From NCBI GenBank assembly GCA_029941885.1, contig JAPYTP010000001.1, positions 13,989 through 77,988 of the forward strand: a stretch of 64,000 bases of DNA. The letters are read 5' to 3'. The notes under the pieces were generated by a model, which did no database searches, was not told the DNA's origin, and worked only from the letters and a program-made list of their open reading frames with translations. This document shows, piece by piece, positions 7,648 through 33,018 of this stretch. The number at the start of each line of letters is the position of its first letter. The first letter of the stretch is position 1. A program made the translations under genes and the position numbers. The DNA comes from Myxococcota bacterium (lineage in GTDB: Bacteria > Myxococcota_A > UBA9160 > UBA4427).

Positions 7648-8865
7648 ATGTCGACCCAGAACGCCCCCGAACGGCGCTCATTTCGGCAATACCATGCGGG
7701 CGAGCTTCTAGAGCGATTGCGAGAACAGCGCGATCGGCTTCCGTCTGACTACGCGGCGACCCTACGCCCCCTCGGTATCCGGATTCGCGAGACCGGCGAG
7801 GAAGTGACATACAGCGAGCGCGACAGGGGAGTCGACGTGACCCCCGGTGTCGAGGCGGCTTCGACCGTGGTCGGGCTGAGCGAGGTGAGTTGGGAACATC
7901 TGACCCGTGATCTCGAATCCTCCGCGGGGTTGATCTATGGCAACCGTGTCGAGCGAATACGCGGGGATCTGATGGAGTTGATGCAGTGGGAGCCGGCGCT
8001 TCGTTGGATGTTCGTTCGCCGTCCCGTCTACGACGAGAGCGCCGTCGATCTGCGTGGGGCCTCCGGCCGCCAGTTCGATTCGTGTCACGGCTTCCGCCCG
8101 GACGATGATAAAGAGGAGATGAAGGAGTACCTGCGGGCCGTCGGCTATCTGTGGATTCGCGGCCTGTTCTCGCCGGAGGAGGTCGCGACGCTGCAGGCCG
8201 AAGCCAATGAACTACGCGACGAGGCCGTCGAAGGGGATCAGCAGTCCTGGTGGGGCAAGACGGAGGAGGGTCAGTCTGTCGTGTGCCGAGTGCTTCGCGC
8301 CGGGACCAAGAAGAAGATGCGGTCGCTCCACGGAGATGATCGGATCGAGCGCCTCGCAGCGCTCTGCGACGTCCCGATGGCGACGAAGCAGGGCCCGGAG
8401 GACAAGGACGGCGTGACCGTTCTATGGAAGCAGCCCGGGGTGGCCGAGGGACTCGGTGACCTGCCCTGGCATCGCGATTGTGGAATGGGTGGTCACGCCA
8501 GCATGTGCCCGACGGCGGTCATGAGTCTATTTCTTGGACCCAACACGCCAGAGGCCGGTGAGATCCGATTTCTTCCGGGTTCCTGGCAGACGTCGCTGGC
8601 GTTCGCCGAAGGGGGGGCTCCATCCGCGCCGGAAGGAGTTGCTCCGCCCGCACTGCCCGGCGACGTCACCTTCCACTACGGCGACGGGCTCCACGTCGCA
8701 CCGCCACCGACCGGAACCGAGGAGCCGTTCCGGAGCTGTGTCCTGATCGGCTACCAACGGGTCGGGGCGCACCACCACCTCGGTGACCGCCACTACAACG
8801 ATCTGCTCCTGGGGAGTGAAGACGGCCAGATCGAGCATATGTCGAAGGTCGCCGACCGCCGCTGA
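7648..8865 (+). CDS. Phytanoyl-CoA dioxygenase (PhyH) family Fe(II)/2-oxoglutarate oxygenase with an N-terminal extension
   Basis: The C-terminal half has LPWHRDCG (HxD) and a later GDGLHVAPP His. GGGAGGA SD at 7633-7639 precedes ATG 7648. The N-terminal ~140 aa look SCP2-like (weak). Confidence 0.75.
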   Translation: MSTQNAPERRSFRQYHAGELLERLREQRDRLPSDYAATLRPLGIRIRETGEEVTYSERDRGVDVTPGVEAASTVVGLSEVSWEHLTRDLESSAGLIYGNRVERIRGDLMELMQWEPALRWMFVRRPVYDESAVDLRGASGRQFDSCHGFRPDDDKEEMKEYLRAVGYLWIRGLFSPEEVATLQAEANELRDEAVEGDQQSWWGKTEEGQSVVCRVLRAGTKKKMRSLHGDDRIERLAALCDVPMATKQGPEDKDGVTVLWKQPGVAEGLGDLPWHRDCGMGGHASMCPTAVMSLFLGPNTPEAGEIRFLPGSWQTSLAFAEGGAPSAPEGVAPPALPGDVTFHYGDGLHVAPPPTGTEEPFRSCVLIGYQRVGAHHHLGDRHYNDLLLGSEDGQIEHMSKVADRR

Positions 8866-9105
8866 AGGTTTTGCTCGAGGCGACCGGGGCTTCGTGTCGG
8901 TGGCCCTGGGGCATCCGTGGGTCGAAACCCTGAAAATTTACAACGCTTTTACGTAGCGCTCGATCGCGATCGTTTTCCGGGCAATTCAATTCAGCTACAC
9001 CTGCGCTCGCGTCCTGTCGCAATGCCGAGTAGGTCCTCGGATTCGGCAGATCTCGACCTGGCTGTACGGCCCAGAGCCTCATGAACCGACGCCCCCCGCG
9101 AAAGA

Positions 9106-10011
9106 TTGACACATTCTATGAACGCTGCGATCGACCTCGATGCCCGCGTCCTCGCCGAGCCTGTGCCCGCCTGCGATCCGGATCTCGCTACCTCCAACGA
9201 AACGACGAAAGTCGCGTCGATGAAGGGAACGATCCTTCGCTACCGAGCGGACCGCCGCTCCGTTTCGTACGCGTTGGCGATGTTCGGTCTGCATGCGGTC
9301 GCCTTCTTCTACGCTCCGACCTGGTTGGCCGCACTCTGCACGATTCCGCTCGCGATCGTCAGTATGTTCGTCGCGCCGATCAATCATCATCATCAGCATT
9401 TCAATACGTTTCACTCGGCGGCCCTGAATCGCATCTACGAGTTGGTGCTTTCTCTGCAGACCGGAATCAGCCCCTACGGCTGGGTCCTGCATCATAACCT
9501 CGGACATCATCGCAACTATCTCAATCAGCGACCCCATCCCCAGCCCGATGAATCGAAGTGGACACGCAAAGATGGTTCACAGATGGGCAGGGTCGAGTAC
9601 ACGATCGATCTCGTTCTGAACCACCAGATCGACATCATGCGCGTCGGTCGGAAACATCCGAGATTCCTCAGTGCCTTCCTGCTGATGAAGATCCCTGTCT
9701 GGACGATTCTCGGAATCGCGCTCTACATCAATCCGCTGAACGCCTTCCTGGTCCTGCTGATTCCCTCGTTCATCGCGCTCTGCCACACATCCTGGGCGAC
9801 CTATGAGCATCACGCGGGCAACTATCCATCGTGTCACGAAGACGCGAGCATGAATCGTACGAGTCCCCTCTTCAACTTCATGACCTACAACCTCGGCTAC
9901 CATACGGCACACCACAAGCGCCCCGGAGTCCACTGGTCATTGCTTCCGAAGATCCACGAAGAGATCAAGGACCAGATTCCGCCGGAGATGATTCAGACCA
10001 GCTTCTGGTAG
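9106..10011 (+). CDS. Membrane fatty-acid desaturase family protein
   Basis: Three histidine boxes: NHHHQHF, HHNLGHH, HTAHHKRP. Several TM helices. The track start is TTG 9106; ATG 9118 or ATG 9220 (MKGTILRY) are alternatives. G+C is visibly lower than in neighbouring genes. Confidence 0.8.
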   Translation: MTHSMNAAIDLDARVLAEPVPACDPDLATSNETTKVASMKGTILRYRADRRSVSYALAMFGLHAVAFFYAPTWLAALCTIPLAIVSMFVAPINHHHQHFNTFHSAALNRIYELVLSLQTGISPYGWVLHHNLGHHRNYLNQRPHPQPDESKWTRKDGSQMGRVEYTIDLVLNHQIDIMRVGRKHPRFLSAFLLMKIPVWTILGIALYINPLNAFLVLLIPSFIALCHTSWATYEHHAGNYPSCHEDASMNRTSPLFNFMTYNLGYHTAHHKRPGVHWSLLPKIHEEIKDQIPPEMIQTSFW

Positions 10012-28079: not shown

Positions 28080-29558
28080 TCAGTCCGCCGCGGCTACGCT
28101 CTTCCCCGCCATCCGGCCGAAGAAACTGCTTCCGCCGATCGACATGCCGCTCGCATAGTGGCTTCCCGAGCGGGTCAGGCCGGCGGAGGCGCGACCCGCC
28201 GCGTACAGACCTCTGATGATCTGGCCGTCGACGCCCAGCACTTCGCCTGTCGGCTGAGTATTGAGTCCACCTAACGTAAACGTGGCCCAGATGCTCTTGT
28301 CGACGGAGAGGTCGAGGGCCGCATACGGCGGGTGGTCGAGAGGCGTGACATATTTCTCGGCTTTGTGAAAGACCGGATCGACGCCCGCCGCCGCGAAGTG
28401 GTTATAGGACGCGAAGGTGTGGACGAGCTGCCCTTGGGGCATGCCGAGAGAGCGCTCGAGTTCTTCGATCGTCTCCTCGACCGCGACCATCTGATAGCCG
28501 CCCAGGGATTGTCCGTAGGTTTCGTCGTCGACGATCAGGAAGGCCGTCCCGTCCGCCTTCTTCTGGATCGCATCGGTCACGCGGCCGTGATAGCAGTCCT
28601 CGTTGATGAAGCGCTGACCCTGTTGGCTCACGACCAGTCCCTTGATGTGGCCGACCGGTGGGAAAAAGGGCGTCGTCATCAACCCCTCGTTCATGTTGAT
28701 CGCGGCTCCTCCGACACCCATTCCCATACGAATTCCGCTCCCGTCACATCCGTCGCTGCCGATCGGGTAGTTGCATCTTGCGAGATCCGGAGCGAACTGT
28801 TCGACCATCGCGCGATTCATGATGAAGCCGCCGGTCGTGAGAACGACGCCCCGTCGCGCGCGAATCGCGACGTCGTTGCCTTCGATCTGGGCGACCACGC
28901 CGACTACACGGCCCGTTTCGTCCTCGATCAAGGTCTGTACGCGGGACTCGTTCTGGATCGTGCCCCCGAGTGCGCCCAGAGTCTCGATCATTTGCTCGAT
29001 GATATAGCCTCCGGCGCTGCCTTCCTTCTTGGGCTTGTGGCCGCGGGGGACGGGGACCGCTTCTTCGGAGAAGGGATAGGCCTGTTCGTTGCCGGAGTAG
29101 ATCAGACAATCGTCGGTGGGGGGGAAGATGACCTTCTCGTCGTAGTAGGTGTCCTTAAACTCCACCCCGATGCTCTCGAAGAACGCGAAATGCTCGAGGC
29201 TGTTCTCGCAGTAGAGCCGGACTTTCTCGGGGTCAGCGGTCGGTCCTGCGGCCCCCTTCACGTGCGCATGCATGTTCTCGATCGAGTCTTCGAAACCCGC
29301 AGCCTTCTGGACGCGCGTCCCACCCCCGAAATAGATCGTCCCCTCTGACAGCGCCGTGGCGCCGCCGCCGCGGGTTGCACGTTCGAGGATCAGCGTCGAG
29401 GCGCCAGCGCGCACCACTTCGATGGCGGCGGCTCCTCCCGCCACGCCGAATCCGACGACGATCACGTCGAACTCGCCCCACCAGGAGTCGATCGAGGCGA
29501 GGGCGCGAGGCTCCGACGGAAGGACGTTGTGATCACGAGGGGCGGGGTTCTCGGCCAT
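28080..29558 (-). CDS. FAD-binding oxidoreductase, 3-ketosteroid-delta1-dehydrogenase / fumarate-reductase flavoprotein-like
   Basis: FDVIVVGFGVAGGAAAIE dinucleotide motif, VVLTTGGF, C-terminal LYAAG...G. Trimmed to MAENPAP (ATG 29558). Confidence 0.75.
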   Translation of the reverse strand: MAENPAPRDHNVLPSEPRALASIDSWWGEFDVIVVGFGVAGGAAAIEVVRAGASTLILERATRGGGATALSEGTIYFGGGTRVQKAAGFEDSIENMHAHVKGAAGPTADPEKVRLYCENSLEHFAFFESIGVEFKDTYYDEKVIFPPTDDCLIYSGNEQAYPFSEEAVPVPRGHKPKKEGSAGGYIIEQMIETLGALGGTIQNESRVQTLIEDETGRVVGVVAQIEGNDVAIRARRGVVLTTGGFIMNRAMVEQFAPDLARCNYPIGSDGCDGSGIRMGMGVGGAAINMNEGLMTTPFFPPVGHIKGLVVSQQGQRFINEDCYHGRVTDAIQKKADGTAFLIVDDETYGQSLGGYQMVAVEETIEELERSLGMPQGQLVHTFASYNHFAAAGVDPVFHKAEKYVTPLDHPPYAALDLSVDKSIWATFTLGGLNTQPTGEVLGVDGQIIRGLYAAGRASAGLTRSGSHYASGMSIGGSSFFGRMAGKSVAAAD

Positions 29559-29716
29559 GGGGGGTCGTCCAATGCTTCTGGTGCTGAGCGCGCCGAAGAA
29601 TAGCGGGGCGTCGACTGCGTGGATCAGTCGATCCGCCGGGGCCGAGGATGCGCGCGAGTTGCCGGTCCGGAGGCATTTTCCCGTCGCCCGAGCCGTTCCG
29701 GGAGAGACTTCATTTA

Positions 29717-29737
29717 AAATGGTATAAAGTACCATTT
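29717..29737. promoter_or_regulatory. Perfect 8-5-8 palindrome AAATGGTA-TAAAG-TACCATTT in an AT-rich divergent promoter region
   Basis: Read directly. Embedded in the only strongly AT-rich ~45 nt between the KstD-like gene (-) and the OMP gene (+). Confidence 0.45.
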
Positions 29738-29941
29738 ATATAGAGTCGATCTGGCGAGAGATGATGACGCCGCCTCCTGCCGTTATCTCCACGTCCCGAT
29801 CTTTGACCCGACGCGAGAATGATTCGATGCCCAGTGTCCTGTCCCTTTGCGGGGCGCTCGGATTCCGATCCGATGCCTCCCCACACATACTCCGGAGCGC
29901 GAACCCTTCGAACGCTCGTCCGGCTGGAGTTCCCGATCCCG

Positions 29942-30763
29942 ATGTGCCTGTTATCCGCCGTCGCCCGATCGCGCTCGCTCGTCGCGAGTCTCGCCGCGGT
30001 TCTGAGGTCGCTGTCGGCCGTCGGCTCCGACGAGACGACGGAAGGGTCATCGGGATTCTGGGAGTCGGTCTTCTGGACTTATACGGCTGGCTTCGACTAC
30101 AGCCGCGGCGATTATGGCCTGAGGCGAGATTCGCCCCTTTTTTACATGCCGCTCGGGGTGATTGCCGATTACGAGCGTTTCCGGATTCAGGTCGTCGTCC
30201 CCTTCATCGTAAGCGACGGACCCACAACCCTCCGATCGGGTCCGGGCCCGCCACCGCCTCCCCCTCCTCGCCCCCCGCTCGAATCCGAAACGAATCGAGG
30301 GGTTGGCGAGATCGTGACCTCGGCCAGCTACCTGCTGGATCCCTTTCTCGACGGGATGCCCTAGGTGGAGCTGGGGGTGGACGTGACGTTGCCGACGCGT
30401 TCGAAGAACGAACTCGGTACGGGCGCCTGGGGCTTCGCGGCTTGGGCCGAGTTCTTTCAGCAGATCGGACCGGTCACGCCCTTCGCGACCCTTGGACGCA
30501 GCTTCTTTGCAAGCGATTCTCTCGACGACCGATTCTTTGCGTCGGTGGGCGGGAGCATCGAGCTTTCGGAATTCGTCGCGGCGGGTTTCTCCTACGACTG
30601 GCTCGAGGAGACTTCCGGTGAAACACCCGACGCCCAGGAACTCGTACCGTTTCTCGTACTCGCCGTGTCGCCAAGATTGTCGATCGGACCCTACGGCGTC
30701 TTGGGTCTCTCGAGCGGGTCGCCGGACGACGGTTTCGGAGTGAGCATGAGCTTCGCGCCATGA
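29942..30763 (+). pseudogene. Outer-membrane beta-barrel transporter (MetA-pathway/phenol-degradation-like family) interrupted by an in-frame TAG at 30362-30364
   Basis: Track ORFs 29819-30364 and 30365-30763 are in the same frame, separated only by TAG. Alternating beta-strand patterns (FDYSRGDYG, GVGEIVTSASYLL | VDVTLPT....LGTGAWG, terminal GVSMSF) continue across the stop. Confidence 0.6.
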
Positions 30764-30812
30764 ACCCGAGGAGAAGAGAACCGTTGCCACTCGAAGACAT
30801 GGGATCGAATCG

Positions 30813-31736
30813 ATGAACGGACCCGCACCGTCTCCGCCCGCTGACACAGCAACCCTGATCGTTGCAATGCTGCGACGAATGTTGCGCCCACTGGTGCGAT
30901 TCCTCGTCTCGCGTCAGGTTCAATACCCCCTCGTTTCCCGACTCCTCAAGTCTCTCTTCATCGAAGTCGCGACGTCGGATTTCTCTCTCGAAGGGAAGCG
31001 TCTCACGGTGAGTCGATTGAGCCTGCTGACCGGCATCCACCGGCGCGAGGTCAAGCGAATCCAGGAGCAGGGCGCACCGGGTGAGGCGCCGACTCCCTCG
31101 GCGATCACCCTCGCTGCTCAGATCGTTGCGCGCTGGACCGGCCAGGCGCCCTGGATCGATGAGGAAGGACGGCCGCGGCCGTTGCGACGGCAGACCGAGG
31201 AGGGCGACGCGCCCTCTTTTGCGCGATTGGTGAATTCCGTCAGCGTCGATATCCATCCACGGTCCGTTCTCGACGAATGGATACGGCTCGGGATCGCCTC
31301 GATCGACGCTGACGGCGCGGTCGTCTTGAATTCCGAAGCGTTCGTGCCATCGCGTGGTTTCGAAGAGAAGGCGCACTATGTCGGACTGAATCTGCGTGAT
31401 CATCTGGCCGCTGCGGCAGGAAACCTCGATTCGGACGAATCGCCCTTTCTCGAACGGAGTGTTCACTACGGCTCGCTTCCCGCAGATGCGGTCGAAGAAT
31501 TGTCTGCACTCGCACGAGAAGTGGGGCAGCAGGCTCTGGTGCGCGTCAACGAGCGTGCGCGCGAGTTGAAGCGGCTCGCGCTGGAGCGCGGTGACGAGCA
31601 TGGGCGGGATCATCGACGCATCACGTTCGGCGTCTACGAGTACGATGTGCCGACGAACGAGGAAGCCGCGCGAGCGTCCGAGTCGGACGAGGAGGGGGTG
31701 CCGAACGAGGACCTGGGAGATGGCGATGCGGAATGA
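30813..31736 (+). CDS. DUF6502-like protein with an HTH-like segment and an acidic C-terminal tail
   Basis: LLRRMLRPLVRFLVSRQVQYPLVSRLLK...RLTVSRLSLLTGIHRREVKRI (HTH-like). Tail is EEAARASESDEEGVPNEDLGDGDAE. Family name from memory. Confidence 0.55.
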   Translation: MNGPAPSPPADTATLIVAMLRRMLRPLVRFLVSRQVQYPLVSRLLKSLFIEVATSDFSLEGKRLTVSRLSLLTGIHRREVKRIQEQGAPGEAPTPSAITLAAQIVARWTGQAPWIDEEGRPRPLRRQTEEGDAPSFARLVNSVSVDIHPRSVLDEWIRLGIASIDADGAVVLNSEAFVPSRGFEEKAHYVGLNLRDHLAAAAGNLDSDESPFLERSVHYGSLPADAVEELSALAREVGQQALVRVNERARELKRLALERGDEHGRDHRRITFGVYEYDVPTNEEAARASESDEEGVPNEDLGDGDAE

Positions 31737-33018
31737 TCGACATCGCACGAGGGCCGCACTCGATCGCCGGCGTTGGCTCTCGTTGCTGGTCACGGCGATC
31801 CTGCTGCCGGCGGGGTTGATCCAGGCGGAATGCCCCGAAGAGAGTTGGGCAACGGGAGCGTCGATCGCGTTCGAGGACGAGATCGTGCTGGGGTCGACGA
31901 CGGGGGGCAACGGAATCGGAGGGTCGGGGGTTGTCCCGGATCCCGGAGACGATGACGGCATCGGCGGCTCGGGTCTCTCTCCGACGGACGATTCCGGGGA
32001 GGACGGGATTGGTGGATCCGGCCTCTATGGCACTGTCACGGGCTTCGGCAGTGTATGCGTGAATGGCCGAAGCGTGCTCTATGACGATACGGTGGACGTT
32101 TCGGTCGATGAGGGCGCAGCGGTCATTGCTGACCTCGCGGTGGGTCAGGTCGTGCGAGTCGACTTCGAGGCGCGTGAAGATGGCCTCTACGCTCGCCGGA
32201 TCGATGTGCAGCACGAGGTTCTCGGACCCGTCACGGCTTCGGACAAGGACAGCGTCGAGGTGATGGGACAGCGTGTCGCGCTCGAACACCTATCCGACGG
32301 CACGCAGATCGAGATCGAAATCGGCATGCGGATCGCGGTGAGTGGCCTCAGGCGATCCGACGGGACGGTCGTTGCCTCCCGGATCGACCCCGCTGGAGTG
32401 GCGGTTGCGGACCTGGTTCGCGGTGTGCTCGTGCCAGTCGGAGATTTCTCATTCCGGATCGGAACCACGCCCATCGGTTCGATCAGACCAGACGACATGG
32501 AAATGTCGCCGCCGCGGGCGGGCCTCGGCTCGGGGGATGTCGTTCGTGAGATCGTCCTGGGATCGTGGAACTCGGAGAGAAGCATGCTCCTGGCGAATCG
32601 ACGTGGGATGTCCCCCGTCGCGTCGTCGCAAGTACGGCGGGTCGATCTCGAAGGATATGTCGAGCGAAACGAGGCGGGGGTCCTCGCGGTCAGTGGTGTC
32701 GCGTTCTCGATTCGAGAGGGCGCCGCTTCGTTCCGCCGAGGCGACCGGGTCCGTGTGCGGGGCAGTCGTCGTGAAGCCGGCGAACCGCTCAGGTTGCGAC
32801 GCGCGATGCGAGTCCCCGAGCGTCCGATGCTCCGCTCCCTGAATAGAAGCATGCGCCCTTCAAAGCTCTTGCGGCCCGGTCTCCAGCGACCACCACGGGG
32901 CCGCGGGGATTCCTCGCAGGTGCGTCGTGGTCGTCCGGAGCGTCCGCAGAATCACCACGTGCGGAGACCGCCTCCCCGCCATGACCTGTTGCCCCCGAGA
33001 CGTCCACCTCCGCGGTGA
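31720..33018 (+). CDS. Secreted/anchored protein with GIGGSG repeats and DUF5666-like tandem beta domains
   Basis: Signal/anchor RRWLSLLVTAILLPAGLIQA, then 3x GIGGSG, then about 4 repeats of a G.V..(F)..V.G..V......G..V.V.G pattern, then an Arg/Pro-rich tail. Overlaps the upstream gene by 17 nt. Confidence 0.6.
   Translation: MAMRNDRHRTRAALDRRRWLSLLVTAILLPAGLIQAECPEESWATGASIAFEDEIVLGSTTGGNGIGGSGVVPDPGDDDGIGGSGLSPTDDSGEDGIGGSGLYGTVTGFGSVCVNGRSVLYDDTVDVSVDEGAAVIADLAVGQVVRVDFEAREDGLYARRIDVQHEVLGPVTASDKDSVEVMGQRVALEHLSDGTQIEIEIGMRIAVSGLRRSDGTVVASRIDPAGVAVADLVRGVLVPVGDFSFRIGTTPIGSIRPDDMEMSPPRAGLGSGDVVREIVLGSWNSERSMLLANRRGMSPVASSQVRRVDLEGYVERNEAGVLAVSGVAFSIREGAASFRRGDRVRVRGSRREAGEPLRLRRAMRVPERPMLRSLNRSMRPSKLLRPGLQRPPRGRGDSSQVRRGRPERPQNHHVRRPPPRHDLLPPRRPPPR

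Follow-up and report, generated by a model that had tools for sequence, protein, structure and literature searches.

Autoregulated repressors of the ArsR/SmtB, MarR and IclR types have their operator over the promoter of an operon that contains the regulator gene itself. On the envelope side, the outer-membrane channel FapF of the Pseudomonas functional-amyloid (Fap) system (PDB 5O65/5O67) has a long N-terminal extension ahead of its barrel, and periplasmic proteins of the CusF, CcmE and YgiW type are built on the oligonucleotide/oligosaccharide-binding (OB) fold. Here we analyzed a block of three genes, A, B and C, that recalls each of these systems in part. It lies in a 64,000-nt window of contig JAPYTP010000001.1 from a Myxococcota bacterium; the window is the whole stretch of DNA studied, all coordinates refer to it, and its open reading frame (ORF) listing and translation were used for gene calls. 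The region is one copy of a widespread cassette made up of a palindromic operator, a DUF6502 protein (B), a DUF5666 protein with GIGGxG repeats (C) and an outer-membrane beta-barrel apparently related to FapF (A). The block was confirmed in the window, with A interrupted. Our analysis led us to propose that B is probably a winged-helix repressor that controls its own operon together with a small envelope regulon of exported proteins.

Gene B (30813-31736, + strand) encodes a 307-aa, presumably cytoplasmic protein which belongs to the DUF6502 family, in agreement with the initial annotation of this stretch. It matched PF20112 with 109.3 bits, residues 17-278 aligning to positions 5-262 of the 268 of the model (the Pfam gathering score is 27 bits both for PF20112 and for the DUF5666 model PF18914), and all 27 aligned relatives matched the model as well. 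The helix-turn-helix (HTH)-like segment LTVSRLSLLTGIHRREVKRI (aa 64-83) is conserved among relatives, and the acidic tail, also anticipated, comprises 12 Asp/Glu against one Lys/Arg in the last 30 residues; an export signal was not found in B. In the AlphaFold2 (AF2) model (predicted local distance difference test, pLDDT, 68) an N-terminal helical unit with the HTH (aa 64-86) is followed by a winged-helix-like domain (aa 100-175), long helices and the disordered acidic tail. The weak top Foldseek matches of this model, none of them significant, were all winged-helix regulators (IclR, MarR and MntR). The family is large: 884 matches were obtained by a word-index search and 4,909 clusters at 50% identity by a full hidden Markov model scan, and at least 558 stretches coding for a relative of B were confirmed in one-genome-per-species GTDB contigs, from Myxococcota, Alpha-, Beta- and Gammaproteobacteria, Marinimicrobia, Binatia and others. 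A search of the literature on DUF6502 found none, and DUF5666, the GIGGTG motif and the operator half-sites gave nothing relevant.

For the analysis of the gene set, 80 loci were fetched from one-genome-per-species GTDB genomes, each picked for encoding B; 72 of them had enough flank to read the order of B and C, and the counts below refer to 52 loci for A and to 78 for the operator upstream of B. C came immediately after B in 62 of the 72 loci, and the two genes overlap or abut in most, so that the tight coupling proposed for the window, where B and C share 17 nt (31720-31736), extends to the family. A homologue of A was present in the flank of 34 of the 52 loci: in 22 it is convergent just after C, in seven co-directional after C and in five upstream, four of these being co-directional with B, as in the window, and one on the opposite strand. 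The 49-nt gap between A and B (30764-30812) was likewise confirmed. The co-occurrence of the three families holds across phyla. When all neighbouring ORFs of the 80 loci were clustered, no conserved family was recovered besides A, B and C, and in none of the 80 loci did the operator have a conserved, non-exported protein next to it other than B.

The block had been described as preceded by an AT-rich, operator-like palindrome, a view that the comparison of loci supported. In the window the putative operator is a 21-bp perfect palindrome, AAATGGTA-TAAAG-TACCATTT (29717-29737), with a 17-bp core at 29719-29735, and it is unique in the window (0 expected). This core, ATGGTATAAAGTACCAT, is a clade variant, with half-sites TGGTA/TACCA, of a family-wide 17-bp inverted-repeat consensus, GTGGGAAnnnTTCCCAC, found upstream of B in most loci and often in two copies. 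L001/L081, L002 and L007 have comparable variants, and sites related to that of the window precede the module in these loci as well as in L003 and L004. L121, the closest relative, has an identical site within an intergenic region that has otherwise changed. The 12-base core TGGGAAnnnTTCCCA occurred 59 times without mismatch in the 1.26 Mb of loci and not once in 20 composition-preserving shuffles; allowing up to one mismatch, the figures were 114 and 2.6. A site was found within 350 bp upstream of B in 59 of the 78 loci, and separate copies precede A where A is transcribed apart, and other small genes too. Where sites are paired, their spacing is 28-35 or 62-67 bp, which corresponds to approximately three or six turns of the helix. 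L003 and L004 have a promoter, TTGACG-17-TAGTTT, whose 17-bp spacer is occupied by one copy, and a second one lies after the -10 element. Across lineages, a palindrome is thus conserved at the promoter of the operon to which B, the probable regulator, belongs. In the window, a possible extended -10 element, TGgTATAAA (29720-29728, + strand), read from the letters and facing A-B-C, would lie inside the palindrome, which should be marked as a regulatory site.

These features, an operator over the promoter, sites paired in helical phase and a regulator gene inside the operon, are those of the ArsR/SmtB-, MarR- and IclR-type repressors. DUF6502, however, has no significant sequence or fold match to any of these families, and it differs from them by an additional helical unit with the HTH at its N terminus and by a long, helical C-terminal region. 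Since the palindrome overlaps the promoters of this operon in many phyla and B is the sole conserved cytoplasmic protein with an HTH beside it, we propose that B is an autoregulator. The logic of such a cassette, an operator-controlled operon headed by its own regulator, is already known. HetR of cyanobacteria was also considered as an identity for B. This protein has a similar length, about 300 aa, and its binding site is a palindrome of 17 bp, rich in G and with AT in the middle; the identity was not supported, as no PDB sequence match was obtained at E<=10 and HetR was absent from the top 50 Foldseek hits, a test limited by the quality of the model. A covariation between the recognition helix and the half-sites was not counted as evidence: the clade with HRRE has TGGTA/TGGAA, yet L003, also with HRRE, keeps TGGGA, and the independent events were too few.

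The motif was then considered apart from B, in a scan of metagenome contigs that required two perfect cores with 14-19 bp between them. It yielded 36 double-site loci, 21 of which had B, C or A beside the sites; of the other 15, most readable ones encode small secreted, low-complexity or Cys-paired proteins, belonging to families that recur beside modules elsewhere. Because the motif leads in this way to B, C or A or to small secreted proteins, it marks a small dedicated regulon and not a global one. Repeats of Asp, Glu or His are abundant in several proteins of the regulon. Pfam searches on the extra operator-linked genes gave weak matches to CarboxypepD_reg, one to PhyH and one to TPR/GDSL, none of them informative on function.

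Several points weigh against a repressor role for B at this palindrome. The C-terminal half of its AF2 model is poor, which limits what can be read from it; the Foldseek comparison with the PDB returned nothing significant (best E 0.15), and a PDB profile search with B gave only noise, with no relevant match to a known DNA-binding family. As all 80 loci encode B by choice, motif and B co-occur in part through the way the loci were picked, and the motif-only scan loosens this dependence only partly, many of its contigs being short. The window has a single, divergent site, within a shared divergent intergenic region, and because this region is shared, the KstD-like gene on its other side could equally be served by the site. 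A sigma-70 consensus scan of the locus found no full promoter, and none of the RNA-seq runs contains the locus. Moreover, A is absent from about a third of the loci, and the analogy with FapF from which a role of A and C is proposed is a weak one. In an alternative explanation, the palindrome would be the site of another regulator, encoded elsewhere, for example one acting on the KstD-like gene, and B would not bind DNA but have a different cytoplasmic role, for example as a partner or chaperone in the making of C. The lack of a significant match of B to a known DNA-binding fold and the translational coupling of B and C speak for this alternative, as does the position of the site in the window and its close relatives, in an intergenic region shared with this FAD_binding_2 gene and about 160 bp from its likely start. 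We regard it as unlikely, since the same motif immediately precedes B in Alpha-, Beta- and Gammaproteobacteria, Myxococcota, Marinimicrobia and Binatia with no FAD_binding_2 gene nearby, B is the only conserved non-exported neighbour of the motif, the motif-only loci lead again to B, C or A, and B has a conserved HTH-like segment together with a winged-helix-like domain.

If B is the autoregulator, the cassette may work as follows. B, as a dimeric HTH/winged-helix protein, would bind the palindrome overlapping the promoter of its own operon, in the window at the one site 29719-29735 with the -10-like element TGgTATAAA inside it, and would repress A-B-C until released by some signal. C would be exported via Sec and its signal peptide cleaved; the protein would probably be closed by a Cys38-Cys113 disulfide in this lineage and be a lipoprotein in Alphaproteobacteria. 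In the periplasm C would form a string of about four OB-like barrels between disordered Gly-rich repeats and a Pro/Arg-rich tail. A, co-regulated, would be the outer-membrane channel of the set and, by analogy with FapF, may let through or retain the disordered parts of C, or else the small, secreted, disordered proteins whose genes bear this operator in other genomes.

Gene C (31720-33018, + strand) encodes a 432-aa protein that matched DUF5666 (PF18914) in two stretches with 54.7 bits; 33 of the 34 aligned relatives also matched this model. A signal peptide (aa 1-36) is followed by Cys38, three GIGGSG motifs (aa 65-70, 80-85 and 96-101), about four OB-like DUF5666 beta units (aa 102-364, including Cys113) and a disordered tail (aa 365-432) with 18 Arg and 16 Pro among its 68 residues. 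In its AF2 model (pLDDT 72.5; predicted template modelling score, pTM, 0.67) the signal-peptide helix precedes disordered repeats (aa 41-101), a beta array (aa 102-364) whose structure fits approximately four DUF5666-sized units, and the disordered tail. Hence the repeats, the number of beta domains and the Arg/Pro tail agreed with the initial annotation; the signal anchor did not, as the signal peptide is predicted to be cleavable (…GLIQA|EC). The start of the gene may also be placed differently: given that the Shine-Dalgarno sequence GGGAG (31715-31719) touches the ATG at 31720 and lies 6 nt before that at 31726, translation perhaps begins at the latter, in which case the overlap with B would be 11 nt and not 17.

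The C family conserves two to seven G[IL]GG[TS]G repeats and the junction GIGGTG-xxGTxTGFGSxCVNG. The Cys after the signal peptide covaries with the Cys of this junction, in domain 1: they are paired in 31 sequences, 22 sequences have a lipobox and lack the domain-1 Cys, and the six exceptions derive mostly from the crude pattern used. This covariation argues that C is exported and either disulfide-closed or lipid-anchored. The lipoprotein forms were found in Alphaproteobacteria and Marinimicrobia and the Cys-pair forms elsewhere, and the alphaproteobacterial proteins terminate in a conserved RPPMV. In relatives the tail is Pro-rich, a mixed-charge (E/D)RP repeat or even acidic, and not consistently basic. 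A pairing of the acidic tail of B with the basic tail of C, which had been suggested, is therefore not sustained: B has no export signal and C is an exported protein, and it is unlikely that tails in different compartments meet.

The DUF5666 units of C were modelled as small OB-like barrels, as in periplasmic proteins of the CusF, CcmE and YgiW type, and the best Foldseek matches of C were tandem cold-shock/S1 OB arrays. Unlike those periplasmic proteins, C adds the G[IL]GG[TS]G repeats, a Cys pair or lipobox and the Pro-rich (E/D)RP tail. The likeness raises a different explanation of the module, in which C would be a periplasmic binder of a metal or small ligand, A an uptake or efflux pore and B a cytoplasmic sensor of the same ligand. 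Operons headed by a winged-helix metalloregulator are common. The C family gave weak Pfam matches to CcmE, CusF_Ec and SSB-type OB families, conserved Asp, His and Glu positions were seen in the B family, and to these may be added the Asp/Glu/His-rich repeats of several regulon proteins. The OB matches, however, were all far under the family thresholds, no metal-binding motif is conserved in C besides the Cys pair, itself replaced wholesale in the lipoprotein forms, and around the module in the 80 loci neither transporters nor efflux pumps nor metal enzymes are conserved. Ligand or metal binding by the OB array of C is a fair rival; we consider the explanation as a whole quite improbable.

The outer-membrane barrel gene A (29942-30763, + strand) had been taken as an open gene of about 270 aa, which is not the case. 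An in-frame TAG (30362-30364) cuts A after 140 codons and divides it into two ORFs of the same frame, 29819-30364 and 30365-30763. The codon is covered without differences by Logan contigs from three samples (runs X1, X3 and X4), all from one hydrothermal-vent study; runs of other studies do not span it. Intact relatives of 260-280 aa were present in 45 of the 80 loci, and in them the corresponding column holds Leu, Trp, Tyr, Phe, Val or Ala. Reassignment of TAG as a sense codon was rejected for the genome-wide code, because 14 of the 34 long ORFs in the window end in TAG, which is thus an ordinary stop here; local read-through lies outside that rejection. Compared with the intact A of L121, the gene shows 66% identity and a ratio of nonsynonymous to synonymous substitution rates (dN/dS) of 0.27, equal to that of C, implying that A was under selection until recently and that the nonsense mutation is young. 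This recent inactivation left only the regulator and C intact in this genome, and for annotation A of this genome should be marked as a pseudogene. A terminator scan gave chance-level matches only, inside A.

The assignment of A to the MetA-pathway type of barrels was loosely supported, through its relatives and not through the gene itself. No Pfam or NCBIfam model was matched by the A of the window even at E<=10, and PF13557 (Phenol_MetA_deg) was not recovered at this threshold whether the halves were searched apart or joined via X or Q at the stop; of the three proposed family memberships, those in DUF6502 and DUF5666 were therefore the ones upheld. Among 24 intact relatives, eight matched PF13557 (best E 1e-7) and seven DUF3187; some database relatives carry a precomputed PF13557 hit, and most close relatives reach no model. 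Unlike PF13557 barrels, the A family is not linked to phenol or meta-pathway genes. Its profile aligned in three colinear pieces with residues 90-334 of the FapF barrel (E 1.2e-5; best single stretch, E 0.03), suggesting that A is a distant member of the FapF/Phenol_MetA_deg superfamily. As in the Fap system, the barrel is co-encoded or co-regulated with exported, repeat-rich, partly disordered proteins, which suggests, by analogy, that a FapF-like channel may export such proteins or place them on the surface. In contrast to FapF, A has only about 240 mature residues and no sign of a long N-terminal extension; its partners are OB arrays and low-complexity proteins instead of Fap amyloid subunits, and any secretion through A, broken here, would be conjectured from FapF. 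Genes for FapA-E partners were not found in the window or in the 80 loci, where the conserved partners were B and C only.

The genes flanking the block encode, according to Pfam, a P450, a KstD-like FAD_binding_2 protein and a luciferase-like monooxygenase; an ABC-F protein was called from its conserved position and size in L081 and L121. The proximity of sterol/lipid catabolic genes had led to the suggestion that A, B and C together act as a device for the capture or sensing of hydrophobic compounds on behalf of that pathway. P450, ACAD and KstD-like genes do adjoin the module in the window and in close relatives, some A relatives touch PF13557, and the A profile gave a very weak hit to TodX (E 0.19). 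These catabolic neighbours, however, recur only in close relatives, whose B is 68-81% identical, and are not conserved beyond the clade, so that their adjacency reflects synteny by descent and no functional link; in the 80 loci no neighbour apart from A, B and C was conserved. Furthermore, the other operator-bearing genes encode small secreted low-complexity proteins and not catabolic enzymes, the barrel is inactivated in this genome with the catabolic genes intact, and in structure A comes closest to a polypeptide channel and not to a channel for hydrophobic compounds. We find this suggestion highly improbable, and the module is not to be annotated as part of a sterol pathway.

The KstD-like gene deserves a comment as regards its start. 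Its longest ORF (28080-29735, - strand) extends across the operator; translation probably begins at about 29558, with the Met of MAENPAPRD. With this start the divergent intergenic region measures 384 bp and the operator lies about 160 bp from the gene, a distance also found in L081 and L121. A 286-aa ORF (29761-30621, + strand) overlaps A in a different frame; none of the loci examined contains a homologue of it, and it resembles a shadow ORF of GC-rich DNA. The window contains no tRNA genes.

The survey also revealed variants of the locus. In L081 the operator and A are separated by a + strand ORF (8517-9050) whose product has a signal peptide and then a disordered region rich in Arg and Asp. 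This ORF looks like an extra first gene of the operon; the 140-aa ORF that the gene caller placed on the - strand at 8508-9137 is probably spurious. The window and L121 are without a gene of this type between operator and A. In seven gammaproteobacterial loci lacking C (L020, L025, L039, L043, L057, L069 and L078), B lies between two lipoproteins, both of which have CarboxypepD_reg-like domains and a long acidic tail. A GIGGTG motif is present in one of the two, and a copy of the operator precedes the downstream one. In L042, from a metagenome-assembled genome of Desulfobulbia, three copies of ATGGAGGTTGTGCCCAT (9055-9251) with an exact spacing of 90 bp lie 550-730 bp upstream of B, constituting a tandem repeat that bears an operator-like palindrome. 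A PhyH-type (phytanoyl-CoA dioxygenase family) protein adjoins double sites in L092 (36-1415) and L107 (3305-4141); its gene, divergent from that of a small Cys-paired secreted protein, encodes the sole enzyme seen beside the motif.

A broader proposal would be that DUF6502, C and A constitute a phylum-spanning pathway that places disordered repeat-rich proteins in or on the outer membrane, C being a periplasmic carrier or a substrate and A a polypeptide channel, under a new transcription-factor family with its own operator code; we hold this to be possible, if rather doubtful. More immediately, the conserved operator makes DUF6502 testable as a new class of transcription factors. DUF6502 and its partners account for protein clusters in the thousands, in groups that range from Myxococcota to methylotrophs and marine Alphaproteobacteria, and as the regulon consists only of exported proteins and an outer-membrane barrel, it offers an entry into envelope function in these bacteria.

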